DNA of 61,623 nucleotides, filler included, from Hausera hauseri (Eukaryota): assembly GCA_046269625.1 (NCBI GenBank). It is 12 parts of 12 records of this genome, joined end to end, with 100 filler letters (N's around TTAATTAATTAA, not from the genome) between each part and the next. Parts side by side here need not be neighbours in the genome. Positions count along the whole stretch, not along the records: positions 47,459 to 53,343 come from JBJURY010174417.1; 11 more parts are not named here. One strand, given 5' to 3'. The notes under the pieces are model-generated. The model was not told the origin of the DNA and did no database searches. It saw nothing but the letters and a program-made list of their open reading frames with translations. Below are positions 9,102 through 61,623 of this stretch, in pieces (within the stretch, counting starts at the first letter, position 1; each line of letters opens with the position of its first letter). The translations under genes were made by a program, and so were the position numbers.

Positions 9102-9215
9102 AAGTAGAGAAAAGTNNNNNNNNNNNNNNNNNNNNNNNNNNNNNNNNNNNNNNNNNNNNTTAATTAATTAANNNNNNNNNNNNNNNNNNNNNNNNNNNNN
9201 NNNNNNNNNNNNNNN

Positions 9216-11925: not shown

Positions 11926-12249
11926 NNNNNNNNNNNNNNNNNNNNNNNNNNNNNNNNNNNNNNNNNNNNNNNNNNNNNNNNNNNNNNNNNNNNNNNNNNN
12001 NNNNNNNNNNNNNNNNNNNNNNNNNCCACACACAGTCCCCCATGAAGACACATTGTCAGGACGCACGGACAATAGACCAGCATACGGTGAGCTCCCAGTA
12101 ATCTGAACCTGAAACGGAGCCGTAACACCTATTGTCATTGTCCCATTGGTTCTAATGCCACCTTGAATCCGCTGTGCAGCATAAACGGCTCTGTCAAAAA
12201 AAACGGTGGCTAAAAGAAGTTGGACAGCAATGTAAAAAATAATCATCAT
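9216..12249 (-). CDS. Large secreted/surface scavenger-receptor cysteine-rich (SRCR) repeat protein, 3' end missing
   Basis: Signal peptide from ATG at 12249 (MMIIFYIAVQLLLATVFF). At least 8 SRCR domains (GR.E.....WGTVC...F....A...C.SLG...G.G.I.L..V.C...C.H.EDVGV.C). Spans the N gap at 11926-12025. Intronless. Confidence 0.9.
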
Positions 12250-15200
12250 GTATTAAGATTTGGCCAGTAACTCTAAAATAGCCGTTCAACGAGGCTAACA
12301 GCACACACACTGGATTTTTTCAATAGTATGCAAGCTCGCTTGTATACAAGTAATGGAATCCTCTTCTAATCAACGGTCAAAACACACTCCTTGCAATAGG
12401 ATCCTCGTCCCCACGTCCCTTGGGTAGTGTTCACAAATAGAACTCAGCGAACCTAGCCCAAGAACCGGAGACTATAGTAAAAAAGATTATTAACGTCCAA
12501 GCAGTAGCGAAGTTTAATTCGAGAACAATAAAAAAGGTGCAATGTTTCCTTTTATAGAAAATTGTATTTAACTAGTGTTATCTCGTCTATTCGTGTTATA
12601 ACAACCTATTGATAGCAAAATCTCCAATATATCGTAATTGGCATTCAATGGAAAAAGGAATAACACTGAGAAAAGAACAAATATCCTGATAGGATGGTTA
12701 ACAAACAAACGCACATGGAGAGTGTCTGGGGGCATTCACGCACACATAAATCGAGCCCGGTAAGTGTAAAAAAGAAAAAACAAAAAAGCATGAATAAAAA
12801 ATGCACATCAATGTGTATAACGGGCTCGTACGGTCGTGTTGCGTCTAGATCATCATTCACATGTTACACGCTTTCCCCTGCAATTGAGATGTTTTTCTAA
12901 CACAGGTCAGTGTCACATAACATGTAAACTATGCACCGTTCAACTATCAATACCTTTGACTGGTAACGTCAATGACTTCATTGAGTAGAATCACAAATTC
13001 AGCAGAAACTAACAACGATACGCATGTACATGCATTATTACTACAAATAATCATAATAGTCCAGGTATGCATCGGAGAGACAAGCAAACGTCAGACAGCA
13101 TACAAGGTCACAGTACATGAAAGAAAGAAACAACAACTCAGTCGCAACGAAGAAGCAGTAGCTTTTTATATAAAAAAACAATAAACAGCATTATGTCTCT
13201 TACAGAGAAACATACTCACAAAGCAAGACATGGGTTAAATAAGTAGCAATCATCCATAAAATATAACTAAAATGGACTAGCGCCATCAACAAATAAATAA
13301 GTCACGCGACCCAACAAAACAAACACCTCATCTTCAACGTTCGCTCAGCATGTAACCACAGCACAAGAACCTATGAAAACAAGGAAGCGTGTTTCTACAC
13401 GTTTTCTCATTAGTTAATTGCACCTGTGTATAAATGGAACGGATAACATAAATTAATCAGGAACATATACACGTTTCCACATGATGAACACGATTCTACA
13501 GAAGCAGCAATCGAGGCACTCGGCGCTCCATTAGAAACAAAAAAAACACGACGACACTTCTCACCCATGCAAACATTCTACCTCATGCAACAGAGGCATT
13601 TCTCCCCACAAGATGTAGCACACTAATACGTGCCCTACAGTTCATTCAGAAAGCATCAATAGCTCCTCGAAATGTGTAGTGAACCACTAACAACAATACA
13701 CTACAACCATGTAGGTGTGCAGAAAACCAACAGCAACAGATCAGTTCAAACCTCTTCAAATGATTCTAAAGAGAAAATCAAGTACACAGTCGCCCTGGGA
13801 GCGAGCGGCGCGCAGAATAGTCATTGGTAAAAATGGGCTCTATTTAACTGAACCATAGTACGTCGCCATGGTTGAAATGGATTGTTCTTGCACCAACCGT
13901 CACTAGTTTAATCTGTTTGAGGTGATCGACTTCCGTTACTACGGACATCGAAAAATGCACTGATGTTCACCATGATAGCAATTACAGTCACAGCTCAGCC
14001 CACATTTAAACAATCAAACACATGCTCAGGCTAAAATCAATGACATCTCGGTATCTCTCTAAACACCAGATGACACCTCACGTGCACCAACTTTATCAAA
14101 GACCATTTCGTATAGAACAACACCACCTTTCAACCAGGACACAACAAGACTCCCTCAGTCAGATACTCAATATCAGTCATGTCCATTGACCTCTACACAC
14201 AAAACACCCATACATAAGAATCCACAGCGTGCAAACCCCACTTACACAGACAGCCCTCGGCGTGATGACTCACACTGAGCAGTACAAATCGACTGATGCG
14301 ATAAACAAATCCGTCCAACCGAGCAAAACAGGCAGTAACATCAGCAACATGAACACGATAGCAATTGGATGCCAAGCATTAATGAGACGTGTCCTCCCCG
14401 TCATTCGAGACCAAGTTGCAAACAGTACTGCTAAAGCGCTCAGAATCCTCAGGGTGGTCTCGCTGAGTTCAACAATAAATTCATCTGGGTGTACAACCGA
14501 GACATACTCCATGAAGTCACACTGTTGCTGGAGGGGATGACCCCTTGTGGTATCACTTACTACGCGCGAGTAGAAGCGTTCACTACAAAACACACCACTT
14601 GTGAAATTGATCACGTCCACACAACTCCAGAATACAAAAAATTTAGTACCGCGCGTCAATCCATCAAGCACACACCAGTCGTCACTCGGCTTTAACCCGC
14701 AGAGGACAACTGATACCCGTTCATTCAAATTGCTACGCACGTACCCAGAATCACAACAATCGAGCTCCACAATTAGTTGCACTTTCCATATATCAACTAT
14801 CACGACAACAGTGATTATTTCTATAAACAAGGAAACAATATCCTCTGTGGACACTCCACCATTAACGCCAATGAAGCAAGAACAAGAACGCACACTCTGG
14901 GGCACAAACAAAAAAAAAAAAAAACAATAAAGACCTCAACGCACGCAATAATACCTTCGCCATTTTCATACACAGGAACGGTACATATAAGACACATCCG
15001 ATTGGTGTGTTCATCGATCCCGCCTCCACACGTACAAAGGGCGAAGGCCCTAGCGCGGCCGAGGATAGAGTAATCGTCGTCAGGAAGGTATGTATGCGAG
15101 GCCAAAAATGTATCATTGTAATCTGTATTCACAGACAACAGCTCATCAGCACAACAACCCTCGAATGTTGTTCCAACAGTCATCTCCAAATGAACAAAAA

Positions 15201-21166: not shown

Positions 21167-21790
21167 CGGAAGCTCGACCCGTTTTAATTTCGGTGCCAGA
21201 TATTCACTTCGAGTTTTCACATCGGATTTATCTTCTAACATTAGAAGACCTCTCATTTGTATCATTTTTATTATTTCTTCATTTTGCATCTCAATGTTAT
21301 TTAACTCCTCGATTAATTCTGCTAGTTCTTCTTTTTTCTTCAACTTCCTGGCGAGTAACTTAAAGGCGCTGATCTCCATAGATAATTTCTTAAAGGTTTC
21401 ATCGTATTTACTGTTTTGACGTTGAAACTCTTCTTCGGTTAATCGATTATTCATTAGTGATTTTCTCTGGACTATCAACTCATATCTTAGTCCATCTTTG
21501 GCTAACAATTGACTCTCGAAATCTTCGTTTTCGATTGTACTTCCTCCTTTCAGTCCACAATTGATATTTATTGTTGCCCCATGGGGAATTTTTTGTATCG
21601 TCTCATCACCGTTCCACTTTCTATTATTGTAGATAATTACAGAGTTATCTATCATCATGTGACACTTTTCTGATATTTTTGTTTTCAACAGAGCGACTGT
21701 TTCTATTCCGTCAACATCAACAACGATTAGTAGGTTTTGGTTTACTTTCACAATGATTTGTTTTAATTGTGGTTCTTCAGACTCTATTTT
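21167..21790 (-). mobile_element. Ubiquitin-like domain fused to LTR-retrotransposon Gag-like N-terminus (family 1, copy a), truncated at the contig end
   Basis: KQIIVKV...ETVALLKTKISEK...IIYNNRKWNGDETI...GATININCGLKGG (21763-21542) aligns with ubiquitin. A helical region and PKLKRVELP follow, homologous to 49378-50247. Confidence 0.75.
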
Positions 21791-22653
21791 TTATTCTTTA
21801 ATTCTATCCTTCTCTTTCCCATCATTTCGTTTATTTTATCCTCATTGTCTTTCTCATCATAATTTGTATTGTTGCCCAAATCCTTTCCCACTATTTTTGA
21901 ATGTTTCTGTATTTCAATTTTTGCATTTCTTAAGTTGATGTCTGATGTTTTTTGTTTTTCTCCCTTTGACCATTTAATAACTCTTTTTCTATCATCTTGA
22001 ACTGTTGTGACAATTCTTTGGGTATTGTTTTGAACTTCATTATTTGAGGATCTGTTTTTTAACTCATCCTTTACAGTTCCCACGGAACATTCTGCCCACG
22101 AATTTGATTCCATTTCATTAGTTTCATCAACAAAAATGAATTTTTATATAAGATGTCTATTTTAATGTTTTCTACAATTTCATTTAAAGACAAATTTTTT
22201 AGAAAGAACAAATTTATTCTTACGTTTGATTTAGTATAATTTAAAACAGCAATATAGAAGTTATATAACCTTCCCCTGTAAGTTTTAACGCAATAATTAT
22301 AAAAAAGGGATTTAAAGTAGGGAGTGGGAACGGCAGACAATGACATACATGACAATCCAAAATAACTGACCTTTGTTTTATTTGACATTGTTTTCTCCTC
22401 GGTTCTGTATTTTCTGATTCGATATTTAGACATGATGTCATCGATTCCGTTTCGAAATGGAATTTCCACCCGACTAAACAGGTATACTTCAGCTTTGTTC
22501 TCGTAACTTCTGTTCGTTTCAGCTAAAATGTTGATTAAAGCGAATTTTAGGGGGATTCGGAACCCCGTTACAATCAATAATTGTGGTTCTAAAGAGAACC
22601 GTTAACATTCTTAATTTGATCAACTGCTTTAGTTCTGACAACTATTCTTTCTT

Positions 22654-23560
22654 TTACAACTCAGCTTCTTCAGCTTTTCGACGTTGCAATTCTATTTTTA
22701 TCTGAATTTTACGCAATTTTTCTTTTTCCAATGTCACTTTTTCGGATTCAACAATGGATCCGATTTGAGTTACATGATTTTCAATCTCCGTTGAATGGTC
22801 GGATGCTGCAGCGTCTTCTTTTAACTTTTCCAACAAACTTTTGTAGTCACTTATTTGATTTGTTAGTATTTGTGACAACTTTTCGGATTGTGGCAGAGTC
22901 AACGTTTCATTTGTTTCACCCACAAATAATTCAACAAATTCCAATTTGAACTTTTGCGCATTCGATATCAATCGTGAAAATCGATCATTGATCATCAATT
23001 TTAAAGAATTAACGCCCAATTCAAGTGTACCGAACCGATTTCTTAGTACTTCACATTCTCTTTCGTTTAAAGTATCACATCGCTGTCCAACTCGAAGATT
23101 TAATTCATTCAGACAGAGAATCTTCTGTTCTATTTCATTCAATATCTCTTGTAAATTATCTTTCGAATTCATTTCATCATTGTTTATCTCTAAAGAATAA
23201 TCGTAATATTTACTATAAACGTCTTTATTCATGGCATCAATCCATTCTTCTACAGCACCTATATGGAACACAATTTTGTAAATGTCGTTTCTGATAGAAC
23301 TTTTCGTTTATTACTTAATGTTTCTAAAGATTTTTGGGTCATAAATAAACGTCTTTTCAATTCATGGATGGTTTCCAAACATTCGTCTAAAATTACTGCT
23401 ATGTCATCTTCCCACATTTGGCTTTCAATGACTGGTTCATTCTGTACATCAATTGCTGTTATAACTTTGGCAATCAATGGATATTCTACCATTTTTAATT
23501 TCATCTTTATGTAATCGTAATTCGTCGATATTCGAACAAGTTTTAAACGATTGTGCTGTA
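22654..23560 (-). pseudogene. Coiled-coil/helical host protein fragment(s), unidentified
   Basis: ORFs 22654-23271 and 23259-23504 are heptad-rich and in the same orientation as the neighbouring fragments. Confidence 0.35.
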
Positions 23561-23612
23561 GAGCTTCGTGTTTTCCTTTTACCAGTTCAACATGGGCATT
23601 GACAACTCGTTC

Positions 23613-23900
23613 TTATACATGTAGAGATTTACTAATATTTATAGTTTCTTTTAGACGTAAACCTTCGGTTTTTGCATCCTCCTGTTTTTTGCTACCAGCT
23701 AAATCTACCAATTGTAAATAACTCCTCATGATATTATCAACATTTTTGTCCTTATAACGTGTTTTCAGTGAAATTGTGAAGATTGCATGACTTCGAGAGT
23801 TTTTTCTATTCATTACCGTGTTTCCAATATGACGGTTCTTTAAGACGCGGTTTAATATATTTTCAGTCGCTGTCGGATTTTCAATAGTTACTTCAGTTAA
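23613..23900 (-). pseudogene. Kinesin motor fragment (KIF15/kinesin-12-like switch I and II)
   Basis: NRHIGNTVMNRKNSRSHAIFTI...LQLVDLAGSKKQ...GLRLKETINISKSL, with degenerate switch motifs. Confidence 0.8.
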
Positions 23901-23914
23901 TAGCACAATGACGA

Positions 23915-24505
23915 CCTCTTGATTAACTTCTTCCAATCTATCGATTAAACCAGGAGCAAAACTAATGCTCTCCGTATTGTCAAGAGAGCTGACAACCCAT
24001 CCAATATTTTTACATTGACCAGTCTGAACGTCTCCATGAACGCATGTATTACCTTTTCGGAGTTTGTTAACGTTGACAACGACATCAACTTTAGAAGTTT
24101 CGGTAACGTTCGTTGTAATCATATATGTAACTCTGTCACTTTTAAAGTCATTCAATGCTGATTCTCTCTGTTGTTGATCACAATCACTGTGGATCGTTGT
24201 TACCATAAAACCCAGGTAACTCAATTTTATATCCAAAAAGTCAAATAATCTTTTGTTTTCAACAAACACCAACGTTTTTTGATCGGGAATCTTTTTAACA
24301 TACTCTAATGCTCCATTTAACTTTTCTTTCGGCTCCACACAGATCACTTCTTGTTTAATATCACTGTCAACAAGTTCAATAATACAAATGGCTAAAATTA
24401 AACAGTTTTTCAACAAATTCCTTGCTAAATCTTGAATTGCTGTGGGAATAATAGCATTGAACATAAATATTTGATTAGTTCTATCATTACCAGCGAGATT
24501 GATTT
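23915..24505 (-). pseudogene. Vasa/DDX4-DDX3-like DEAD-box helicase C-terminal fragment
   Basis: QIFMFNAIIP.AIQDLA, KTLVFVENKR..DFL, TTIHSDCDQQQRESALNDFK and GQCKNIG are degenerate versions of motifs III-VI. Confidence 0.8.
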
Positions 24506-24549
24506 TCCCTCAAAATCTTTTTACTATTTCAAAAATTCCTTCAAAATCT

Positions 24550-24713
24550 AAAACGCGATGGGCTCCAAGTACACCATTCTTACTACATAAAGTAACATTT
24601 ATATCCTTTGGAATGTAAAATGTTAGTAACATTGGTATTGAAATTCCTACATTCACATACATCCCTTTTTTCAATTCAACGGCTGCTCGTCTGACTATTT
24701 TCTCTGTGATCAA
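24550..24713 (-). pseudogene. Succinyl-CoA:3-oxoacid CoA-transferase (SCOT/OXCT) B-domain fragment
   Basis: EKIVRRAAVELKKGMYVNVGISIP...VTLCSKNGVLG matches RAA.E..GMY.NLGIGIP...L.SENG.LG. The catalytic Glu has been lost (SKNG). Confidence 0.8.
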
Positions 24714-25084
24714 TTTATTGAGTTTTCTTTTCTTTTGTTTCTGCCGTTTTCTGAAATATCAAATTGTCAAATTTATGGACCTTCCATTTTTTTATGAGGG
24801 TGGTCATCAACAAGCTCCGATTCTAATAAATACTTTACTTCATTAAAATCTCGTATTGCTTTTGATTTGTAAGACAAAAGGAGTATTTCATCGTTTGAGA
24901 ACCCTTCAACAATTTTGTACGGCATTTTCAATTGTTGGGGTGATTTCGATATTTTATGTTCATCGGGAAAATCTGTTTTCCTCATTGAAAGTCGCAACCA
25001 TGGTTATATCAAAAAATCAAACAAATGATGATGAAAAGCTGCCGATGAAATTATTTGGTTAAGCTCATTTTAAATAAACATTTT

Positions 25085-25780
25085 GCTTACCAAATCATAA
25101 GTCACCGAATTGACTTTATTTCTTATCAGTTTCGTAACATTCATGATGTTATGGCCAATTGGAAAATCCATCTCTGAGAACCTTAGTTGAGTGCCGGTTA
25201 AATCCTCTTTCGTTGGGACGCCCAACTGAGTAAACCAACTTGGTCAAAGATCTATTTCAACATCAGCACGGAATGGAGCCCTTCTCATTACCATTTTGAC
25301 AAAAATACATCCGAGAGACCAAATGTCGACTTCGGAACCGTAATAGCCTGTTTTCAGCAACAACTCCGTTTTATGATAGTTAATTGTGACAACTTCCAGT
25401 AAGAGAGGAATAAATGTAATTGAGACTTTCCTTACGAGCTCAAATTTAGATAATTTTATTTTTCGCGTGTAATGGTGTATTAATATATTATGGGATTTGA
25501 CATCTCTTTGAATAACTCGACGGTGGTGGCAAAATGATACAGCTTGAAGGATTTGAAACATAAAACCCTTATGCAATATATCCGTCATTTCATATAGTTT
25601 AAGAAAAATATCCAGACTCATTTTCATATATTCCAAATTCATATAACGGTTAGAGTAGGTCAGTAGTACTTGATGAAAACTCACAATATTTGGATGTGGA
25701 AAATTTTCAAACAAACTAATTTCCATTAATATCGTAATTTCAGTTAAATTTTCTGGTTTAAATTTTTTAACAGCAGAAAA
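25085..25780 (-). pseudogene. Cyclin-dependent kinase (CDK1/2-like) fragment
   Basis: AVKK, HPNIV, FCHHRRVIQRDVKSHNILI, EVVTINYHKTELLL, VDIWSLGCIF, F.ADVEID and LGVP. HRD, DFG and APE motifs are degenerate. Confidence 0.85.
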
Positions 25781-38049: not shown

Positions 38050-38603
38050 AATCCGTAAAAAAAACAAGTCAGCTTTACTCTCACCTTTTGAAATTCGTTT
38101 GTAGTATGTTGGGTTCCTGAAACCGTGTATAGGAAAATGAAATGAGAAAGGTTAAGTAAAGTTTTTAGCTTCTCAACTATTCAAAGGAGGTTTTTTTATC
38201 GATTACTTAGGTGTTGATATTAGTAAAAGGAGTAGTGTAATTGCACATTATAAAAATGCAAAATTCCAAAAAGAGTTTTTCATCCAAAATAATAAAAATG
38301 GCTACAATTATTTACTCAAGTATTTGAATGACTTAGACCACCCACAACTCATTTTTGAATCTACAGGTATCTATTCAAGAAGTATGGAACGATTTTGTTG
38401 TGTAAATCAAATTAACTATATTCAAATGAATCCGTTAGAAGCCAAATTTAAAACGAGCGCTCTAAGATCATGGAAAACTGATCAGGCAGATGCTCATAAG
38501 CTTGCTTGTTTAGGACCGACGCTCAAACAAACAGGCAGCTTACCTATACATGAGTTAATATTCTTTGAATTAAGAGAACGTGCCCGTTTTCATCTAGAAA
38601 TCG
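38050..38603 (+). mobile_element. Bacterial IS110-family element 5' part (staphylococcal ISSep2-like): non-coding leader plus DEDD RuvC-like domain
   Basis: Shine-Dalgarno AAGGAGG at 38184-38190, then ATC at 38198. Translates IDYLGVDISK...LIFESTGIYS...MNPLEAK...KTDQADAHKLA. Truncated at about 38603. Confidence 0.85.
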
Positions 38604-39536
38604 TTCAGGTCTAAGTACGTGTATGTCGTCACCCCAGATTTTCTTATCAAACATAACCGAATCAAGATTGGGAATTACTTGAGCTCCTCTAGGAATTATG
38701 TATTGTCCTAGAGTCGTCGTTTCTCCACAGACGCGTATCACACTCAGTGGTACAACACTTGTAACACGCTGAAGTTCTTTAATGAAAGCGTTCATGTATG
38801 GTAATTTATTACTGTCTGACATGGTGGGCTGTCTCTCAGTTCCAATTTCCTTCTCGATCTCACGGTAAACTTTCTCCTGAACTTCGGGATAGTGCAGCAA
38901 ATATAGAACACCCCACAGAATTGTATTAGCAGAAGTTTCTACGCCAGCGCCAAACAGGTCATAAATAACTTTCCTCAAATTTGCATCATCCATGGTGGTA
39001 GATTCTCCTGCGTTTTCTTTTTTGTTTTTGTAAAATATGTAGCTAGAAATGAAGTCGTTTAAATTATTTTCATCGATGGTCTCCGGTGTCTTGGCTTGGA
39101 TAAACGGCTCAAGGAATGAATACATTATATACTTTGCTCTGTGCTCCACTCTTTTGGCCTTAAAAATATCCCCGGGAAGTTTAAGCAAGATCGGGAAATA
39201 ATTGGCAAGATTCCGACCATCTGCATCTTCAACATTCATCCGAAGATTTTTTAAAACTTGGACAACATTTTTATCGTCATGCTGAAAAGTATGTCCAATC
39301 ATGATAGAACAGATGACGTTGGTGATGCTTGTCATAATTATGTCATGGATGTCTAAAGGATGCCCTTTGAAATTTGCAATGAGGTCGTTGTTGCTGGCAG
39401 CTAATTCTGAAATCTTCTGAGAAATGGAACTTTTACCCATACCAAGATCTCTTAAAATGGTCAGAGTTACATCCTTTTGTTCTTTCCATAAACCGCCATT
39501 AGAAAACACAATCCCTTTACCTGCTAAGCCAGTTGC
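38583..39536 (-). CDS. Cytochrome P450 (CYP2-clan-like) exon, truncated after PERF (no heme-Cys motif)
   Basis: GIVFSNGGLWKEQ, DLFGAGVETSA, ELQR and LRPERFLDENG. Splice acceptor tttcag just upstream (39542-39537). Confidence 0.88.
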
Positions 39537-40409
39537 CTGAAAGTATAGTTGAAGAAATAGTTTAAAACGTATGAAATAATTACGTATTTAATTAGTCATT
39601 ATTATCATCATGGCATTTGTAGATCGCCTGCTTGCCTGCTACTTTTAAATTAATGTTCAGACTTTCTTTGATGTCTTGTATCCATACAAGTAAAATTTAC
39701 ATATTCACAGCTAAAGAAGTACGAGGGAATATGTACCTAGAGTTGGCATTTTCCTTGACCAACTGATCATAATTGACTTCTGTGCTCAGCATAACGCCAA
39801 GCCAATTTTTCTTACTGAGAGAATTTTCTCTGCACACAGTTTGTGAAGCTGGTATTGAATCCGGAGCCGATTCGTTGGGAAACAATTCAACACCCAACAG
39901 GCTGGAATCAAAACTCACCACAGTTTGTCTCTTACATTTATCAAACTCAGTCATTAACTATAAACAGTTGAAGAAAGTGTTTTTTACTCCACAAACGTAT
40001 GTTTGCATCGCTACACGCCGAATGTTATCTTCTTCTTGTGTGTTTCTTTGATAATTTCGGTTGCATTATCATCTTCCATTAACAAGCCGTTTGTATGCCG
40101 TCCATGTCATTACAGCCCGCTCACAAGAATCTCTGTCTCGTGCTACTTTGTCTGTTGCTTTCAATGTAATGCTCAGATTACCTATAATAAGTTGTGCGAG
40201 GCTTATACGTGAAGCAATAAAGGCTACTTCTTGAACACTTTCACTGCAATCAAATAAAAACAATGCTGAATAAGAAATATAGCTGTCTGGCATCTATGGC
40301 TCCTAGCACCTGAAATCACCTGACATTTTTAACTAGCACTACTGTTGTCTGTCAGCAGAAAATTGATAATTGGCTAAAACCCCAGTACATTCAATTCAGG
40401 TATGAAATG

Positions 40410-47242: not shown

Positions 47243-48619
47243 ACAAATTTATATATATTTCTGACTTAAAAATTTTAAATATATAATCTATATACACAAG
47301 TTGATATATATTAATTTAATTGTCACTATGTTTTGTCATAGCAGTTCCATGAATAAAANNNNNNNNNNNNNNNNNNNNNNNNNNNNNNNNNNNNNNNNNN
47401 NNTTAATTAATTAANNNNNNNNNNNNNNNNNNNNNNNNNNNNNNNNNNNNNNNNNNNNAAGAACCGTAATATTAGTACAACATCTGATATAAACTAACAC
47501 TTTCTGATACACGCGTTCTATCATAATTTGAGTCATGATCTCCAATCTGACATCAAAGTTTATGAAGTCAATTCCTCTGTCAACGTAACACTAATAATTA
47601 AGTGTTTTCTGATTGCCTTTTGTCCTTTTTCCTTTTCTTTTTCATTTCCCGGGAATGTCTGAAATTATCTATTAATTGACTGGTTCTCGATAACTCAAGG
47701 AAAGAACATATAAACTTATACCTATTCAATCTTTTCCCATTTCTATTATGCACTTCCATATGTGTGATTTTCTTAAATGAAAAATAACGCAATACTTGCG
47801 AAATGAAATAATGCATTTGGGACGAAATCGTTTCTTGTATTTTCAGAAGCATTTTTCCGGCGAAATTTTTGTCATTTTCCGGAGAGATTTCATACACATA
47901 TCCTTTGGAATTTCTTACATCATTATAAACGATTCCTTATTTGATTTCTTCCATAATAGCGTAAAATCGCCATATTGTCGATTTGGTACAACACAGCATT
48001 TTATGAACAGTACGTTCAAAATTTTAATTTCAATATTCCAATTTTATCAATTCAATTTTAGTGATTAAATTCACTATAGTATCTTTAAATGTGTACTTGA
48101 ATATTTTGTCATTTGTATCGTGTCAGTTAAACTGTTTAAAAGAAGGTTTCGAATTTGTTGATAACTTGAATAAAAGTTTGAATTCTGATGAAGTAATAAG
48201 TAAAATAAGTTCGGATAGACAGCAATCGAAAATGGGCGAAATGTCGTCAACTGATTTTAAACCATCAGCATATGTCTGTAAAAGACTAGGATAATGATGA
48301 GAATTTTCCTTTTTATTATTGATGTAGTATATGTTATAGAATTTGACATATATGAGTCGATATATTTTCTATACATACTCTTTAATTAAAAGAATGCGAC
48401 CACCAAACGAATAGATGAATTAAAACCGATTTAAAATTTTCCAAAGTTCCAAGGCGTTGGCTAAGCTAGACAAGCTAACACACTGTGAAGCTGACGTCAT
48501 GATAATAATAACGCATAAAATACTCTCGTTATTTTTGATTTTGTTGAAAACAGATTTTTTAACGTTCTTTGTGTACAATTGAAACTTGCTGTTTTCAGCA
48601 CATCTTTTTTCGATATTTT

Positions 48620-49066
48620 AATATTCCCGTTATTTTGTACACAATTGCAGTTTGCTGTCTTTATATATCTTTTGCCATCTGATTGAAATTTGAAATGGAA
48701 ACGATATTAATTACTTTCAATGAGTTGTCACATGAGTTGTTCACATTATAACAAGGATCTTTAGTAATCTTGACTTTGGTTGCAAAGACGAACTCTATTG
48801 TTTCCGTTATCTTGAATACAATTGTAGTCTTCTGTTTAACATATTTGCTATTTTGATACCATTTCAATATTTTGCGAGCAATTACGGTTTGTTGTTTGGA
48901 TATTAACATCTGTTATTTATCGTCAACTTTTTCTTGATTTTAAATGCGGTATCTAATATTCATTTATCAGATTTGGATTTAACAAATTTGTAATGCTCCT
49001 TTCATATCGCCTGGTCACCGTCATAATTCCCCCGTCCCCGCAAATGCCGCCAGGAGTTGTTTGCAT
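48620..49066 (-). repeat. Deleted/rearranged duplicate of the LRR-gene segment at 52170-53333
   Basis: Shared blocks: 48622-48658 with 52172-52207, 48906-48982 with 52215-52293, and 48982-49066 with 53250-53333. Confidence 0.75.
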
Positions 49067-49258
49067 TCACAATTATTTTAGCACATTTCATTTTTATATC
49101 ATACATTCAACAAATCCAACCTTCAACAACCCGATTTTTGATGCAAACAGCACAACCAAACATGCACACGTATTTACACTCATACATACACACACCTATA
49201 TATTTATATATTATATACACTATATACATTTTTTATATCCACCTATACATCTCCCGTT
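49066..49258 (-). mobile_element. Possible polypurine tract and 3' LTR start
   Basis: The minus strand reads aacgggaga|TGT at 49249, just after an RHAGRRVLEPDRL pol-tail-like peptide. No matching second LTR was found. Confidence 0.3.
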
Positions 49259-49377
49259 GAAGTTCGACCGGATTCCCCAACTAAACGGTCGGGTTCCAAC
49301 ACCCTTCTTCCTGCATGTCGAAATTTTCTGTCAACCTTTTCTTCTGACCATATAGGCACCTTTCTAACTGTAGTTGT

Positions 49378-50247
49378 TTACATATGGTAGACATTAACGT
49401 TTTGTCCACACGTGTCGAATGTTCTTCTCCATCGATCATATTCAGAGATCGCTCCACCAAATTTTGGCGACTCCAGTCTTTGCAGCTTCGGCAAAATTAC
49501 TTTTTCTTTCATTTCGTCATTCGCGGTCTTTTTTGTTACGTTGACCACAGTTTTATTCTCTCTGAGACTCCGTTCATAAATAATCCTGTTAATCTTCTCA
49601 TTTTGTTCGTCTAATTTCTCCATCTCGTTCTCCAGTAATGTTACGCTCTTTTTCTTTTTCAGCTTTCTAGCTGCGGTGGTCAATAAGCACGATTCTTCCC
49701 GAACATTTGAGAAGATCTTTTCATAACTTTGATAAAATACACCATAGTCGTACTCACTCAAATTCACGTCCATCAGTCTCCTTCTAATTAATGCTAACTC
49801 GTTTATGGGTCCCCGACGTTCGGCGATACGTTCTTCAAGTTCGTCTACGGTTAGTTCACTTCCTTCTTTTAGTCGGAATATTACGTGTATTGCTGATCCA
49901 TGCTTTAGATTCCTCACCTCATCGTCTGTGCGCAATGGTTTTCCGACATATAGTATTCTGAATTCCCAGTTGATCCTTAGGTTCTCCTTTACGTGGTCGA
50001 TTAGAGCGCAGTAAGATTGTAATTTAATTAATCCTGTCACGTAGTGGCGTTCGCTACAATATATAATTATTTGTTTTCCCTTTTGTTCCACTGTAAAGAC
50101 CGAACTTTCCACCATAATACTATCGTCTGATTTTCTTATATTATTTTGCTCCATCGTGACACCCTTCCTAGGATTTCTCAACTTGTCTTTCCTTCTATTC
50201 TCCTCGGTTGACCGTTCCTCAATACCGTTTAGATTTTTAAGATTCAT
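49378..50247 (-). mobile_element. Ubiquitin-like domain plus Gag-like protein (family 1, copy b)
   Basis: KQIIIY...LIDHVKENLRI..EFRILYVGKPLRTDDEVRNLKHGSAIHVIFRLKEG (50076-49861). Then a helical region (ARKLKKK, QNE.I) and LPKLQRLESPKFGGAISEYDRWRRTFD, a Gag P.F.G....W motif as in BEL/Pao DUF1759-type Gag. Confidence 0.78.
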
Positions 50248-52149
50248 TCATTTTTGCACTTTACTCCTTGTTCCCCCAAACAAGTTTCTTATAAACATTT
50301 CATTATTCTTCACATTTGGTTTATTACGTCTTTTGGTCCTTTTGACGCAACCAGATGTATGATCTTCTTCCGTATTACTAATAGATAAGGCTTTTAATTT
50401 TCCCAAGGGCGTCACCATTGCCTCGCCTTCAAAGTTGCACGATTTCCATCCACCGACTTTTGTGGCAACTTTTACGGGCTTGGCACGGATTCTCGCTCCA
50501 TACATACCATAACGGAAGAAAAGTAGGCCAACATCGAGGAGAAAGACATACAGACCTCGAAAGACGATTGCTTCACGTGGTTTGTGTCTGCGGATCACGG
50601 TACAGAGCACAAACCACGCTCTGCTACCATATGGAAATTTTATACGAAATTGACACAGTAAATTCGTCATGTAGTTATATGCATCTCCTTTGAAGTGAAA
50701 GTCCAATTTATTTCCGACATAAACCCCCGGTACAACCTTCACCATTCCTTTCCTGGGCCCATATAATTTTTCTCTTGGAGTGTATACTTCCTCATCTCCA
50801 CTCAAAGGCTCTTGAATCATAGACTTCACCGATTTTGTAACTAACTTATATTGAATTTCCACCACCATCACTAAACCGACCCAATCATTATTAATTTCAT
50901 TACCATAAACATTCGCACACTTTACACATAAGAAATATATAATAGTACTATTGTGGTATATTCGAGAATTATTATTACACAATCGCATATTATTTATGCA
51001 CAATATGTTTATTATGATCTTTCTTTCGTCACTAGGTTCTTTATTCCTCATTTTGTTATTGACTCCAGATCCCATAATATCCGATTCATGAACTTTCCTC
51101 AACCTCCAAATTCCTTTAATCAATATATAGCCATATAAAAAACATTTATGTTAATGTAACAGACAAACCCAGCCATTGTTCTCGCGGTGCCGCTCCGCGG
51201 GGGAATATCTCCACCGTTAAGTATAAGTACTAATGCGAACACTCTGATTTTAACATTCATTCTAATGCTACAATTCCCGGCGACAATCATGGAGACGAAA
51301 AAACAATAACAATTAACAACTGTAATATTGACACAACACTTGACTACCTTAACAATCAGCATTCCCTGTTCCACATATTTCGTTGGACCTTTCATTATAA
51401 CATCAATTTCTTCATTAAGTAATTTCAATGATATATACTCATCTGTTAACGTATTTACAACGACTAAGCATCTCCTAATTGTCTTTCGATCGCTCTCCTT
51501 TATACCTGTATTCTTCAGGAGATATCTAAAGACATTTATCATTGTATTAAACTCCAACGTTTTAACGACATAACGAATAAAATGATACCGACACGATTTT
51601 TCTATGATTTCATCATCTACATCCATACATATAATTTCTTTGACTTGAAAATAATTCAGCATTTGCGATTTGAAATAAAGCGATTGGGACAATTTTATCT
51701 GACATTTCTTTTGAGCCTTTTTCCCGTTGCTTTTTTCCAATTCCTTTAAAGAGATTTTATGAGCGTGATCCTTGAATTCTATCCTATGAATAGACCAATA
51801 ATTTTCATGAATCCGTCTCCTGTACGGTATATAATTTGACTTCATTTAAATGTGCTGGTTTAGAATTTTCTGATCAGCAACGTTTAAAATTAAATTAAAT
51901 TCATTCATCAATTATAGTGATTCAATATCACTATGTATATTATCATTATATAATTATATTGAATATATATACCAATATCTTTTATATATATCTCACGTTG
52001 ATTAAATAAACTTTATTTTACTTGCTAAATTTAATTTTGAAATGAAAGTATCCATGAATGTTGAACTACTTTCAACAATTTTTATAATAGCAAAGGGGTT
52101 TTACGATTTGGCCTTATTCCTATGAAATTTGATAAGCTGAATTTGGTTT

Positions 52150-53197
52150 ATAAAGACAGACTTCTGAATATTCTTTCGTTATTTTGTATACAATTGTGGT
52201 TTGCTGTTTTACTGACATCTGTTATTGATCGTCAACTTTTCTTTCTTGATTTTGGATGGAGCCTCTAATATTCCTTTATCGGATTCGAGTTTAATTTCAA
52301 GAAGTAGTTTATTTGCCTGTTCTTGGCGTTTAACCATTTGCATATCACGGGCATCATCTCGCCATTCTGATACAGTATTTATCTTTAATGCTTTGTAATT
52401 TGATTTCTCTCTTCTTTCACTTTTTTAATTTTAGCTAATCACATTTGCTCATTTATTTTCTGTTCGATGGTTTCCAACGAAATTGGTTCTCGATAAAGGG
52501 TGACAAATTCGCTATGTTTATCCGACTGTGTCATGATTGGTCTTTTATGACAAAGACTTGACGAACGAGACTTATGGAGATACGAATTGTGAATGTCATG
52601 GTAAATCTTTGGTTTGTGAACCTTTTCGGACTGCTTTCGTTGTAAAACAGTATTATTTTCATTCAAATAAAAATCTTCTTGCGGTGTATCACCTGAAAAC
52701 AACCGATCCCTATCAGCAATAAATTACCACAACTAACCCATCGGCTTATCTACTCTATTTAATTCTTTTAAAATTGCTCGATAGCCTTGAGCAAGAACGT
52801 CGGGAGCAGGAGTAACAATTGGATTTGACCCCACATTTAGTCCTTACAGACTTTTAAGTAAGCTCAATTCGAATGGTAATTCCGATGTTATTTCCATCAA
52901 TAAGTAACACTTCCAAATTGACTAAATTCCGAATGTCTCGTGGAATAAACTGAGTCTCATTAAATCATATATCCAAAAATTGTAATTTTGGAAAGGCAAC
53001 GAAAATTTCATTTGGAATTACCTCAAATAATTATTATTAAGATAGCAATATTCAGTAAATGTTGCTTCGTAAATTTCTATGGCTAATTCTTTTAAGCCCA
53101 AATCACTAAAATTAAATGATTTGTCTTTCGAATATAACATATTCAATATCCTCTCTTCAGCTCGTATACTTACATTATTTTCTATATCGTTCGCCAT
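52150..53197 (-). pseudogene. Leucine-rich-repeat protein, decayed
   Basis: FNFSDLGLKEL, YLNNNYL, FPKLQFLDI*FN and IP.DI.NLVNLEVLLIDGNNI, with stops and frameshifts. Confidence 0.7.
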
Positions 53198-53443
53198 AAT
53201 AAACAGTTTTGTTACTCTATATAATTCTTCTACATTGTGATTTGTTTTAACAAATTTCTAATGCTCCTTTCATATCTCCTGGTAATCGTCATCGCTCCCC
53301 CGTCCCCGTGAACGCCGCCAGGAGTTGTTTGCAATCATATTTANNNNNNNNNNNNNNNNNNNNNNNNNNNNNNNNNNNNNNNNNNNNTTAATTAATTAAN
53401 NNNNNNNNNNNNNNNNNNNNNNNNNNNNNNNNNNNNNNNNNNN

Positions 53444-53634: not shown

Positions 53635-54480
53635 TAAATCAGGAATTAGAATGATATTATAATGGAAATTTTGCTGTTTTACATCGTTTTTCGTCTCAGG
53701 ATAAAAATTTAATTTTTAGTTGTTCTACTGGTTCTGACATTAAATGTGTGGCATTTACTTCCATGTCAAACAAACTCTGTTCAAATGCTTCTTTGGACAT
53801 TATATTTGATAATGAAGCATCGAATTTGTCTACGGGAATTGTTTTATTTACAGATAATATTGCGAAATATTATGGATTTAACGGTGAAACTCATGGTTGT
53901 AAACTTCCTTGTCGAGTAAGTAACGCTTGGAAAATGATGAATTGCTTGTTAATCGAACGAGAGGAATATCAGTTATTTACGGATATGTCGCCACATTCGT
54001 TGTTTTTAATGACCCACATAATGTCAGAATTTACATCTGTCGTTTTCCGCGATGAAAATGGTTACAGAGGATTTGTAAATAATACTCGTTTTCGAATAAT
54101 GCCTGTTTGTAAAAAACAGCAGTTGATAATCGGCTATAATAAATCGGACAACTCGTTTTCTTTGTGGCGCTTGAGAGATACAGTGAAAGAAGACTATTCG
54201 AATCATTATAATCAACATTGGGATGGGTCTATTACTACTAAAGCAGCGAAATTACAATTACGTTCTGTCAATATGGATTCAATGTCTCAGATTGACCGGC
54301 AATCTGGTGATTAGTTTACGAATATGACTTTGCTAGCTAATGTTAGCAAAACAAACCGTTCGATTGATGATTTAGATATGCGAAGTCCTCTTGTTCGATC
54401 ATTAAGGTCCACTTTGGGTGTTAACGATTCGGGAACGATGACTCATCGGCAATCGTTAGACATAGCGGCATCGAAACAGA
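53635..54480 (+). pseudogene. ANAPC1: Anaphase-promoting complex subunit 1 N-terminal fragment
   Basis: LPCRVSNAW....LLIER, LF.M.H...EFT.V and IIGYN......SLWRLR resemble the APC1 WD40 region (LPF.V..VW...GLL.ER; H.L.E..P; SVW.LR). Confidence 0.6.
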
Positions 54481-54529
54481 AATTCCATATTTATTAATTT
54501 AAAATTCTAAAATCTCTCGCTTTACATAT

Positions 54530-55130
54530 CCATGGGGCTGACGTAGCTAAAATTCAACTTTATAATACTTCGGTACCGTGTCATGGATATAAAATCGAGC
54601 TTATTCCCGGTGATCCCGTTAGAAAAGCCTTTGAAGGAACGTTAGGTGATGTAGTAAATTCTCAATTTCAACAGCAAATTAATGCCACTCTTCAACACGG
54701 AAAACCATATCAAAATGTGCCGTTAATTAACACAAATAATCATCCTTTATCTTGTCCCAATGGAAATTTTCATTCTGCAAACTGTTATAGACGTCTCTAC
54801 TTTCAATTATTAAAAATTCCAATTCATGAAGTCGAAGATAAGCAACAGTTTTGCTGCGCTTTTGTTGACATTCATGTTCAAGAACAAATGGAAATTATAG
54901 TAACTTTGCATAAAACTGGAAGTGCATCAGATTTATTAGCAGAGGCTAAACGTCAAGCAAGATTAACAAATATAAATTCTTATTTCTATCGACTCTTCGA
55001 GGTTGTTAATCACAGAATCATCAGTCTTATTCCACTGAAACGGAAAATATAAGAGTTGGAACCGAATGCCAATCGAATTCTGCAAATTGAAGCAATTCTC
55101 CCTGGCGAAGAAAAAATAAATCCCAAACAA
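54530..55130 (+). pseudogene. USP7: USP7 C-terminal UBL-region fragment (non-catalytic)
   Basis: PGDPVRKAFEGTLGD, RRLYFQLLKIPI.E.E.K..F.C, K.G...DLL.EAK, RLFEVVNHRII and RIL.IE.I. Confidence 0.75.
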
Positions 55131-57533: not shown

Positions 57534-59460
57534 GTAGTTAGGTAACAAGGGTTGGTGGCGTGTTTCTCCAGATGTTGCATCATCATGTACCCAGTCGTCT
57601 TTATTGTTACGATTATTAGTGACCACGACCACCCGATACATCCATGACTTTTTGTGTAGTTAATTAAGTAATCATTTAAATATTTATGTAGGTAGATGGA
57701 TAATATTAAGGGGTGATGGGATGGGGGATGACGTATTGTAGGTGGGTGAGATAACAGATAAGGTTTGGTAGTGGTGGCATGTTATGTGTAGCCATCATCA
57801 TCATGTGTCGTCTTTATTGTTAAGGATATTAGTAACGAAGGCCTTCCGACACTTCCTTGTCTAGGTGGGTTGTTTTTCGTATTGATGTCTTGGTATACGT
57901 GCAGATAAAGGAGGAAGTTAGCAGTCATCATCACATGCTCAGAGGTGGTTTTCTTATGTATATGTGTAGCAGGACTGTAGTGTTAGAATCAGTAGGTTAG
58001 AGTAGCGTGGGAGTCTAGAGGAGCATCATTGACGAGGAACATTATCATAGTGTTGGGGTGTCATCAGCTGCTTGCAGGTGCCGCTTAGGAGTTGCTATAC
58101 TCGATGATTGTTTGAGTAGTCTGCAGGAGTCTTGGGTTTTCCACAGTTCTTGGCGACAATACCTGACTAGAATATTTTTCCCACACACACTTCACGAAGT
58201 GGACGCCAGCTGTTGCATGCACGTTCACTGCTGAGTATGGCAAGTCAGTAATGCATCACGTTGTGAGAATCACACGGGTTATTGACTTTTTTGTTTGCCT
58301 GTTAATTCAGAGGCTGGGAGTCTGGAGGATCATCATCGTGGTGGAGGTGGTGGGATGATGCCACGCATAAAGATAGATTTTTTTTTTGTAAACTAAGGGA
58401 TCCGGTCATGTTGTTAGACTATTTTTTCTGATGATGTATCCTGTCGTATTTATTGTTAGGGATATTAGTGACCAGGACCTTCCAACACAACCATGAACCT
58501 GGGGTGCGTATTATGTAACTTTTTATAAGGGTAGGTCTGTAGCCGTCAGCAGAGTTATCTAGGATTCTGGGTGTAGGTATTAATCATCTATTAGTAACGA
58601 AGACCTTCTGACACCTTCGTGACGAGGAGACTGGTGGTTCTTCTTCTTCTGGTGTTGCATCACATATGTTTTGGTAGATGTGGCTATTCAGGGAATAGGT
58701 ATGTCACACAGGGGGAGGTAACAGTAATCAGTGGTCGTATGAAGAGACTTGAGGAGCATCAGCTACTGTGGTTGAGTCTAGGAGCTGAGTATGAACACTG
58801 CCTTGTCGGCAAAGGTTTTTTGGGAGAGCCGTCAGGTGTTCATCGTGGATAGGGTGGAAAAGACATTAACAAGTTTGGGAGAAGCTGCCAATTATCGGGA
58901 GATAGGGAGCCGTGGCTTCTTCTTCTTCAGGTGTGGATATTAGACACCATCATCATGTGTCATGGTAGAGATGATTGCATATCCATATATAGATACGGAA
59001 AGTATTTTGGTGGAAGATAGTAGTGATCATGATTATGTACCCTACCTAATAGTTTGGGTTGTCATCAGCTGTTAGAGGCATCATTTTAGTGCTGCTGGTC
59101 TGCTCGAGGATCTATAAGAAGACTGGAGGAGAATCATCGACTATGTTTGAGTGTGGGAGCTGAGCGTTAGCACTGACATGTGGGCAAATATTTTGGGCTA
59201 GTAGTCAGGTGCCTATCAGGGGTGAGGTCGAAAAGTCATAACATGTCCAGGAGGGGCTGCCAAATGCTGAGGGATAGGGATCGGTGGTTTCTCTTTCGGG
59301 TGCATTGATTGGACATCATCGTCACATGCCCTACCTAATAGTAGATGATGGGTGTTGTTTCCCAAATAAAAAGGTAAGATAGGTTCGAGTGTTTGTATAG
59401 ACTCGTGAAGTATGTTTCCTTATTCTTCTTCGGATGTTGGTATTAGCCAACAGCAGCATG
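57534..59460. repeat. Degenerate G/T-rich satellite-like region
   Basis: Recurring blocks gtcgt.tttattgtta.gatattagt.ac.a.g.cc near 57594, 57806, 58443 and 58588. Another block, gaagact.gaggag.atca...ggagctgag, recurs near 58741 and 59118. Confidence 0.55.
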
Positions 59461-59469
59461 TAACAAGGC

Positions 59470-61623
59470 ACCATTTTTATGTCAGCATCTTTTCATGTTG
59501 GCAACTTTTCATGTTGGTAGTTTTTTTAATGTCAGTAATTTTCATGTCAGTAATTTTTCATATAGGCAATTTTTCATGTTGACAACTTTTCATGTCAGCA
59601 ATTTTTCATTTCGACAACTTTTCATATCAGTAAATTTTCATGTTGGCAACATTTCTTGTTGACAACTTTCATGTTTGTTACTTTTCATGTTGACATTTTT
59701 TTCATCCATGACAACGTTTCATGTTGGCAGTTTTTTCATATCAACAACGTTTCGTGTTGAAATTTTTCATGACTTCAACTTTTCATATTGACAGTTTTTC
59801 ATGTCGGCAATTTTTCATGACAGCAATTTTTCATGCCAGAAATTGTTAATGTCCATCATTTTTTCATATTGGCAACTTTTTACGTTGTCTGGATTTCATG
59901 TCAGTTTTCTTGTCGACAAATTTTCATGTTGACAACATTTCATACTACCAACTTTTCAGGTTGGTCATTTTTTTCTTGTCGACAACTTTTTATGTTGGCC
60001 ACTTTTCATTTTGGCAATTTTTGATGTTGGCTATTTTTCATGTTGGCAGTTTTTCAGTTCGAGAACTTCTCATGTTTTCAATTTTTTATGACATCAACTT
60101 TTTCAACTTATTATATCGGCATTTTTTTTCCATGTCAGCAACTTTTCATGGTGAAAACGTTTCATCTTGGCAGCTTTTCATATCGGCAAATTGTCATGTA
60201 GTCAACTTTTGATTCAGAAATAATTATCAGCAACTTTTTTCTTGTCACAAGTTAGGGACAACATTTGTGGTAAAAGGTTCGAACATTTTCCATTCTTCTG
60301 GGTTTTGCAATCATTAGCTTTGACAGGTGGGTGAAGTTGGATCTTTTGCAGACTTTAGTTGTTTTTTTATCCATTCCAATTGTTTAAATTTTTTCTTTCT
60401 TGAGAGTGGTTTTCTGTATTCACATTTTCTGAACTTTTTTCCAATTTGTTTTGGTTCTATTACTCTTTTCACCTACTGACCAATACCCCTCAAAAATTGC
60501 CCACAGTGCATCCTGGAAACAGAAGAAATTCTGGTCAACTTTGGGAGAATCGAACATTGCATCAGGCAATAAAACCAAAACTTATCTAGCCTTGAAAATG
60601 TGTAAAACAAGCATCCGTCTGTTGGACTCATGCACCATGTTGGAAAATCTGTTTACTCGACTCTTGAGGAACTCTGAAACAAGTCTGTCGGACATGTTAA
60701 CACAGTAGTGAAGTAAGAAGCATACTCAATTGATGAAAACATAAACTTCCAGAATCTTGACAAAATCCCAAACTCAAGCTTATGAATAATATCAAGAGAC
60801 CTAAAATGGATTACAAAAGTCTGCAAGAATGCAGAAAACCATTTTCATGAAAGAAAAAATTAAACAATTGGAATGGATCAGAAAACAACTACAGTCTTAA
60901 AAAGACTAAACTTCACCCACCTATCAAAGCAAATAATGGTAAAACCCAGAAGAATGGAAAATGTTCGAACCCTTTACCACAAATATTGTCCCTAAGTTGT
61001 GACTAGAAAAAACAATGCTGACATTTATTTCTGAATACACAAGTTGCCTACATGAAAATTTTCATATATGAAAAGTTGCCAACATCCAAAGTTTTTGACA
61101 TGAAAAGTTGCCGAAATGAAAAAAATTGCCGACATGAAAAGTTGATGTCATGAAAAATTGCAAACGTGAAAATTGCCAACATAAGAAGTAGCCAACATAA
61201 AAAAAATTTCCAACATGAAAAGCAGACAACATGAAAAGTTGATGTCATCAAAAACTGACTGACATGAAAAGTTACCAATATGAAATGTCAACATGAAAAG
61301 TTGTCGATATGAAAAAAATGACCGACATGAAAAGTAGCTGAGATGAATAGTTGCTAACATAAAAAGGTTACCAATATGAAATGTTGACATGAAAAGTTGT
61401 CAACATAAAGTAACAGTGGCATAGTGGTTAATGTGCTTGTGCTCCTAAATGCATGATTGTGGGTCAATCCCAGCTGTGAGCATTGCATTCTTTTGACTAA
61501 TTATGTGCCGGTGTCAAGGAAGAATGTAGACACTAACTCCACATTTCCCTATGCACCTGTATTGGAGGGGGAAATGAAATGACTTGATGAAAAATTGTCA
61601 ATATGATAAGTTGTTGACACGAA
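59470..61623. mobile_element. Foldback-type element: long inverted arms built of about 19-20 bp tandem units plus a ~190-bp inner inverted repeat around a ~450-bp non-coding core
   Basis: Left arm of ttttcatgttggcaac repeats (59470-60210), right arm of gttgccaacatgaaaa repeats (61043-61623). 60211-60399 is the near reverse complement of 60849-61038. Confidence 0.85.
61410..61583 (+). mobile_element. tRNA-derived SINE inserted in the foldback right arm
   Basis: A box TGGCATAGTGG (61417-61427) and B-box-like GGGTCAATCCC (61461-61471). It interrupts the tandem repeat. Confidence 0.55.

Follow-up and report, generated by a model that had tools for sequence, protein, structure and literature searches.

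The window analysed here, 61,623 nucleotides of Hausera hauseri DNA with filler included, is made of short contigs joined by 100-nt spacers, and one of these contigs (47459-53343) carries on its minus strand an ORF of 289 codons (50247-49378), which we call copy b. Both ubiquitin-like motifs that the sequence-only reading had quoted from this ORF are present, and its product runs from a predicted ubiquitin fold through a three-helix bundle into the start of a DUF1759 Gag of BEL/Pao type. On that strand a low-complexity leader (50077-50247, delimited by ORF calls and tblastn) stands at the start of the ORF as earlier called and precedes the ubiquitin-like domain (Ubl), a β-grasp domain of 72 aa at 49861-50076. 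The predicted three-helix bundle, which would form the N-terminus of Gag once the expected cut had been made, occupies 49567-49860 and is 65% identical to that of a database protein, P0001. The capsid-type DUF1759 domain (LPKL...FGG...W) begins at 49408-49494, with 74% identity to P0001 over 27 aa.

The methionine at 50247 had been taken as the start of the ORF, but it is not the true 5' end, since beyond a single in-frame stop (50248-50250, minus strand) that separates the upstream frame from the Ubl-Gag frame there are 300 further stop-free codons (50251-51150, minus strand), in frame with Ubl-Gag and crossing a primer-binding site. One stop per 858 codons puts the decay of copy b, by a rough count, at ~1.5% (0.2-4.8%). 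A homologue, copy a, lies on a separate contig (21167-26383) at 21167-21790, also on the minus strand, and comprises a Ubl (21763-21542) ending in LKGG and a helical bundle, the contig end cutting it at the start of DUF1759. The two copies are 27% identical over 164 aa (E 1e-9) and blastn finds no DNA match between their contigs, so that their likeness is indeed at the protein level only, with domain order and spacing kept as the earlier reading had it. An Rfam scan of the contig of copy b gave one match, at E 4.7, which is chance, and no tRNA genes were found in the window.

A ubiquitin-like domain ahead of a BEL/Pao-type Gag

Taken by itself, the Ubl of copy b reaches E 0.035 and 14.3 bits against Pfam ubiquitin, below the gathering score of 25.4, under which copy a (18.5 bits) also falls. 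In a PDB sequence search, all 12 matches of the copy b Ubl at E<=10 were ubiquitin or RUB1, and a profile of the two copies matches single-domain ubiquitins at E 7e-4. A fold model built from a 3-row alignment (mean pLDDT 70, ~80-89 over most of residues 1-160; a single-sequence fold with pLDDT 40 was discarded) predicts a β-grasp domain over residues 1-72 and a three-helix bundle over 76-180. Over residues 1-72 Foldseek returned, at prob 1.0 and a rmsd of 2.2-3, ubiquitin-fold chains in nearly all listed rows (target TM ~0.77, E 1.5e-3 to 8e-3, none at E<=0.001), and VIA-align against ubiquitin-fold chains gave Z 9.2-9.9 with rmsd 1.9-2.8 over 67-75 residues; in a wide structure search SUMO and PB1 domains stood at tied Z beside ubiquitin. 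As modelled, copy b has the β-grasp fold of the ubiquitin family (PF00240) and of type I ubiquitin-like proteins, while the PF00240 gathering score, which copy b does not reach, is exceeded by the relatives P0004, P0005, P0007 and P0008.

Three of these, P0004, P0005 and P0007, stand near ubiquitin, with Pfam E values of 4e-28 to 3e-22, and the Ubls of copy a, copy b and P0001 are 19-27% identical to that of P0004, itself a near-canonical ubiquitin. In the subfamily formed by a, b and P0001 the Ubl has changed more quickly than the helical part, as seen in the pair of b and P0001, in which 29 of 72 Ubl positions (40%) are identical compared with 64 of 98 helical ones (65%; Fisher p 0.002); the other two pairs show no such difference. 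As synonymous sites between copies a and b are saturated (pS 0.71-0.85), dN/dS is not estimable for this pair.

Behind the Ubl, the helical part retrieved generic helical bundles with VIA-align, and the Gag itself extends further than had been claimed. The sequence-only reading had the ORF cut after W..TFD and jumping to a pol tail, which is wrong: a frameshift near 49410 carries DUF1759 into another frame, where it continues for 38 codons (49302-49415, minus strand) at 60% identity to P0001 (tblastn) and 56% to P0002 (E 4e-12). The peptide of 49377-49246 that had been read as pol tail is largely off-frame Gag DNA, and the two Gag-Pol relatives tested against it gave best E values of 0.23 and 11. 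Neither short piece of copy b is called as DUF1759 by Pfam itself, and it is through the P0001 and P0002 domains passing the Pfam cut-off, to which the pieces are 74% (27 aa) and 56-60% (36-38 aa) identical, that they are assigned. The claim that the downstream domain is Gag thus holds, relatives at 54-74% identity carrying DUF1759 at E 6e-17 to 7e-16, and by sequence comparison copy b has the DUF1759-type capsid Gag of Belpaoviridae. Pol domains are absent from its truncated contig.

Gag homology ends at an 11-nt purine run (49302-49312, minus strand) directly before a TG at 49301, past which unrelated DNA begins. We regard this as a candidate polypurine tract and terminal repeat start; at least 10 purines directly precede only 3 of the 383 TG sites on this strand, and the Gag codons near 49302 are purine-rich anyway. 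The break may have arisen by a deletion that brought Gag up against a related element's polypurine tract and terminal repeat, or else by the insertion of such an element. The earlier description of copy b as internally deleted is therefore possible, although the true break is at ~49302 and not at the place claimed.

Relatives and the extent of the fusion

Searching with copy b alone, among 871 candidates of 158-506 aa, retrieved no homologue. When longer relatives were sought, one of 7986 scored candidates matched, P0001, a protein of 640 aa that is 54% identical and carries DUF1759 (E 6e-17) with no Pfam ubiquitin at E<=1. A profile search of 1.84 billion representatives then gave 1922 matches at E<=0.001, and relatives were drawn from the best 150 of these. 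Among them, 16 chosen proteins were scanned and in four (P0004, P0005, P0007 and P0008) a single chain scores above the Pfam cut-off for ubiquitin and for DUF1759 alike; P0011 and P0002 start inside or at the end of the Ubl. The Ubl-bearing database relatives are singletons from ENA or JGI assemblies, and in JGI metagenome contigs the search for the DNA of relatives gave 593 and 95 pattern matches, none of which was confirmed.

The Ubl-Gag fusion is real, and copy b is a dead, far-diverged member of the lineage that carries it. How narrow this lineage is can be judged from the Gags at large: at least 200 residues precede the Gag motif in 54 of 181 Gag-bearing proteins, only 4 of the 54 having a Ubl, and a search with the Gag part returned 36 proteins of which one (P0008) has ubiquitin and 35 have none, named sponge, bivalve and cnidarian proteins being among the latter. 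The fusion therefore marks one narrow lineage. A quick Gag tree was built from 95 of the 181 rows, namely the 8 family rows and every second one of the rest, with midpoint rooting and with copies a and b left out as too short. One of its branches (SH-aLRT 99) sets all 7 ubiquitin-bearing Gags apart from 83 others; on their side also lie four fragments whose sequence begins downstream of where the Ubl would be and a very long Ubl-less branch, P0126. A single origin of the fusion may account for this.

None of the ubiquitin-bearing relatives reaches as far as RT or integrase, P0002 and P0008 extending only to a protease-like LLDDAS motif, and it is the ubiquitin-less relatives P0019 and P0061 that carry Peptidase_A17 and RT. 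In P0002, two CCCH zinc fingers follow DUF1759 and, after the protease-like motif, the frame continues into a CFAP58 coiled-coil piece (E 2e-18).

The Belpaoviridae traits considered were terminal repeats bounded by TG...CA and a pol order of protease, RT, RNase H (Peptidase_A17) and integrase. Shared with BEL/Pao elements (Belpaoviridae, Semotivirus; PMC8742986) are the helical region before a DUF1759 Gag, a CA before the primer site, and the protease motif and zinc fingers of relatives, and the nearest named ubiquitin-less Gags to the Ubl lineage are those of a sponge, bivalves and cnidarians. The lineage of copy b differs in having ubiquitin before Gag, and copy b differs in its candidate repeats of more than 1.2 kb, its absent pol, a primer site crossed by a coding frame, in a region that ICTV describes as non-coding, and a primer of tRNA-Met type in place of tRNA-Arg or tRNA-Gly (PMC8742986). 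As the tRNA-Met primer goes against the ICTV description, we speak of a BEL/Pao-type element and not of a formal member of Belpaoviridae; that description may itself rest on few exemplars.

In the literature searched, which left Repbase, GyDB and most subscription journals outside, we found no ubiquitin-Gag fusion in BEL/Pao elements; the ICTV profile (PMC8742986) mentions none, and the word 'ubiquitin' has 0 occurrences in the main text of a BEL/Pao survey (PMC3118150). The Ubl-capped Gag is a real and apparently undescribed variant of BEL/Pao-type Gag. The closest parallel among LTR retrotransposons, as far as the accessible part of its description goes, is Burro/GYPSM1, the giant Ty3/gypsy element of planarians, whose polyprotein has a Ubi2/SUMO-like motif (PF11976); that element is a gypsy, its motif comes after Gag, with MATH and BCL-2 domains on either side, and that part of the source describes no GG cut site before Gag (PMC6431247).

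The Gly-Gly junction as a putative host cut site

Conservation within the Ubl is concentrated at its end. The relatives read L-[KRY]-GG at the tail, and GG occupies ubiquitin positions 75-76 in 8 of the 9 sequences that cover it, counted per sequence in a small set whose rows are related to each other; copy b alone departs, its LKEG tail lacking the C-terminal di-glycine. The earlier reading had let its case depend on GG being the subfamily consensus, and this was confirmed. Across the nine rows L73 and G76 are invariant and Ser directly follows GG in seven, copy b included, while the surface positions 44, 68, 70 and 72 vary; only 7 of 73 Ubl columns are conserved at 85% or more, and four of these are 73, 75, 76 and 77. 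The distance from GG to the Gag motif is 117-126 residues in all seven database relatives, and an L.GG at that distance occurs in 1 of 80 Gags without ubiquitin.

In ubiquitin fusions, the ribosomal ones for example, cutting by a hydrolase after GG predicts conservation of this kind. Because a hydrolase cut site predicts conservation on L-x-G-G and a small next residue, a fixed distance to Gag and a variable leader, we propose, on the strength of the sequences and by analogy, that host deubiquitinases cut after the conserved GG and so detach Gag from its long variable leader, leaving it a fixed N-terminus. Translation would start upstream, within the 5' terminal repeat or close to it, and pass through the primer site; the leader would be an exchangeable patchwork that may include captured pieces of host mRNA; and a host ubiquitin hydrolase would cut after GG as in ribosomal ubiquitin fusions and pestivirus insertions, so that upstream captures could not disturb particle assembly. 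In the subfamily of a, b and P0001 the ubiquitin surface would have drifted with L-K-G-G kept, and copy b, with its stop, frameshifts and truncation at 49302, would be dead, its EG tail escaping the cut. Taken jointly, this putative cut and the view of copy b as a broken copy of a BEL/Pao-type retrotransposon lineage with an in-frame Ubl before Gag form the reading that we consider rather probable. As the Ubl of a, b and P0001 is far from ubiquitin, a host hydrolase may no longer recognise it there.

The precedent lies in cytopathogenic pestiviruses (BVDV Osloss, CP1 and CP Rit), in which, according to the accessible part of the source, a captured in-frame ubiquitin stands directly before a viral protein and is proposed to be cut by cellular ubiquitin hydrolases, giving the authentic N-terminus of NS3; in CP Rit a host fragment (S27a) also lies upstream of the ubiquitin (PMC8310069). 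The pestivirus insertions are recent and at the level of strains, as that part of the source presents them, whereas the Ubl-Gag fusion is lineage-wide, old and partly drifted to ~20% identity, and the cutting that is demonstrated in the viruses is predicted from sequence here (PMC8310069).

Integral Ubls usually lose their GG. It is therefore unlikely, in our view, that the Ubl remains attached to Gag to serve in binding or turnover, recruiting ubiquitin receptors such as ESCRT and proteasome shuttles or limiting Gag levels, given that GG is the best-kept feature of this domain. Position 44 moreover reads I, L, L, V, S, L and I, and positions 68-72 vary. Such a role would fit the fold that copy b keeps along with an uncleavable-looking tail, the R42 and hydrophobic 44 retained in near-canonical relatives, and the top Foldseek row, BAG1, an uncut Ubl protein that combines a Ubl with a three-helix bundle (E 1.5e-3, rmsd 20).

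Cutting after GG would also expose the di-glycine end of the Ubl, and one could imagine that the domain is released to act alone, as a conjugated modifier or a decoy of host ubiquitin enzymes after the manner of viral ubiquitins. The nearness of P0004, P0005 and P0007 to ubiquitin, and the best single-domain PDB match of the profile of both copies, a viral ubiquitin (6kna, E 7e-4), speak for this. Activation by ubiquitin E1 needs R72, and position 72 is R in only 4 of the 9 rows; the freed piece would, besides, keep a long variable leader on its N-terminus. We consider this quite improbable, and give just as little chance to the ubiquitin being a functionless passenger, a scrap of captured host mRNA inherited by a lineage that captures often. 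Host pieces have indeed been captured in this family, HSP90 in P0007 and CFAP58 in P0002, and the faster drift of the Ubl than of Gag between b and P0001 is what a passenger might show, but Gags that share only 27-34% identity with one another have retained frame, fold, junction and GG, and a passenger would lose GG as fast as its other positions. Long-term retention of the fusion, which had been put down to selection, is likewise supported by the downstream domain being Gag and by GG in 8 of 9 sequences.

The EG of copy b had been explained as decay after insertion. This is plausible, and yet a decay of ~1.5% gives a chance of only ~6% (1-18%) that either of the two Gly codons was hit, and in this subfamily the Ubl has drifted more than the helical part has; loss of GG in a live lineage looks rare as well. 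On balance we lean modestly towards decay or an assembly error over descent from a lineage that had lost the site.

If the cut takes place as proposed, the first processing step of Gag would fall to host deubiquitinases, a new maturation route for the shell protein of a retrotransposon that would parallel in nature what the ubiquitin-fusion technique does in the laboratory. Ranging from near-canonical ubiquitin to Ubls of 20% identity with L-x-G-G kept, the family forms a ready test set for what the hydrolases require, in which copy b would serve both as a far-diverged member and as a natural non-GG control.

Leader, primer site and flanking blocks

Upstream of the Ubl, copy b has a primer-binding site of tRNA-Met type, TGGTAGCAGAGC (50618-50629, minus strand), placed after a CA and 2 nt and thus defining a candidate LTR end at 50632. 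The primer search gave this one match where 0.06 were expected at <=1 mismatch, and the same 12-mer is described, in the accessible part of the source, as tRNA-Met-complementary in crustacean Copia elements (PMC3587641). Together with the base before it, the site forms an out-of-frame ATG that opens an upstream ORF of 11 codons (50631-50596, minus strand). For the 300 open codons that cross the site no Pfam or PDB match was found. Next to them, overlapping in the next frame, lies an ORF of 241 codons (51123-51845, minus strand) with a paralogue at 48104-47459, which is likely the upstream part of the leader; 241 open codons were reached in none of 500 contig shuffles. From 51845 to the Ubl the leader has 2 breaks in 1766 nt, where shuffles have a mean of 22.9 and a minimum of 16 (0 of 300 as low), a count whose start point was picked after the ORFs were seen; further upstream there are 10 breaks per kb. 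Among Pfam families and solved structures nothing of note points to a host gene in the leader ORFs of copy b.

Copy a likewise has a long open leader, a chain of same-strand ORFs (21764-24758, minus strand) with 7 breaks in 2995 nt compared with 32 or more in shuffles. Within it, Helicase_C (E 1e-10) and a kinesin motor (E 1e-23) form an in-frame chimera at 24509-23616, and a protein kinase fragment (E 2e-35) stands further upstream on the strand of Gag, the pieces together spanning 23616-25804 (minus strand); no primer site is recognisable upstream of copy a. Kinesin motor scraps (E 2e-8 and 4e-18) elsewhere in the window, at 33391-34066 on the plus strand, resemble the piece in this leader. 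In the database, P0007 reads in frame from an HSP90 piece (E 1e-11) into ubiquitin, GG and Gag, and its residues 9-14, H-F-G-S-R-A, before the HSP90, are compatible with CA and the primer site in the same frame as in copy b, although GSRA also occurs in one unrelated match, P0136.

It is conceivable, though we put it short of an even chance, that a captured ubiquitin became fixed as a host-cut linker before Gag in an animal BEL/Pao-type lineage, leaving the upstream frame, terminal repeat and leader, free to capture, shuffle and translate mosaics of host genes, and that the linker works despite drift to ~20% identity. If true, this would explain how constant capture of host mRNA upstream of Gag is tolerated, and would make the element an exon-shuffling engine. 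LTR-mediated retroposition (Tan et al. 2016, PMC5131818) resembles it, in the accessible part of that report, by template-switch capture of host mRNA into multi-gene mosaics that are in sense and often in frame; there the capture replaces internal ORFs and gives non-autonomous copies, whereas in the Ubl lineage it lies upstream of an intact Gag, behind the ubiquitin linker (PMC5131818).

Whether the open leader of copy b belongs to a terminal repeat depends on two blocks that flank it. The upstream block (51315-53343, minus strand) holds decayed LRR-like coding pieces (Pfam LRR_8 only at E 0.055) and is colinear, at 60-86% identity, with a downstream block (47459-49075, minus strand) that the contig end cuts and that may be a related long terminal repeat or a tandem paralogue. 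CA stands before the primer site and TG after the purine run, and the blocks are more than 1.8 kb long, both cut by contig ends; as they are only 60-86% alike while the ORF has decayed by 1.5%, a single insertion did not give rise to them as its LTR pair. Long repeats from two related elements would fit them, as would tandem paralogues.

The blocks could accordingly be host paralogues in tandem, or they could belong to the 3' internal regions of two elements lying side by side. The true LTR would then be a short stretch before the primer site, and the open leader would be a captured gene or a neighbouring one and not LTR cargo. The divergence of the blocks, protein-like and far above that of the ORF, and the LTR length of 0.2-1.2 kb given by ICTV for Belpaoviridae (PMC8742986) argue for this. 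We find it doubtful nonetheless, since the upstream block runs into the CA and primer site, its homologue starts just past the purine run and TG at the Gag break, and both contig ends lie inside shared sequence, as expected for repeats. A short LTR pair was sought between 51500-50633 and 49260-48401, which show no similarity beyond shuffles, and alignments of a short 'cap' supposedly shared by 51210, 49301 and, in copy a, 22572 were no better than shuffles.

Other contigs of the window hold further fragments. At 53655-55052 (plus strand) ANAPC1-like (E 1e-3) and USP7 C-terminal (E 1e-12) fragments adjoin on the same strand, possibly another host-gene mosaic. A Monjiviricetes-type fusion glycoprotein fragment (7464-8274, plus strand; Pfam E 1e-8) is probably a retroelement env or an endogenous viral piece, and ORF pieces at 27095-30336 (plus strand), two of which have no Pfam match at E<=0.01, resemble what we take to be integrase and capsid genes of Polinton/Maverick type. 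At 38156-39587 an IS110 transposase fragment (plus strand, E 5e-13) overlaps the end of a cytochrome P450 ORF (minus strand, E 4e-63), and a chimeric contig or bacterial contamination is possible. The GC-rich stretch (~50%) at 9168-12252, unlike other contigs in composition, repeats cysteine-rich domains, presumably akin to scavenger-receptor repeats, and is maybe from another organism. Within 57534-61623 lie short dispersed repeats, in families of 57-66 nt, and a 16-nt satellite that has an inverted pair of 159 nt.
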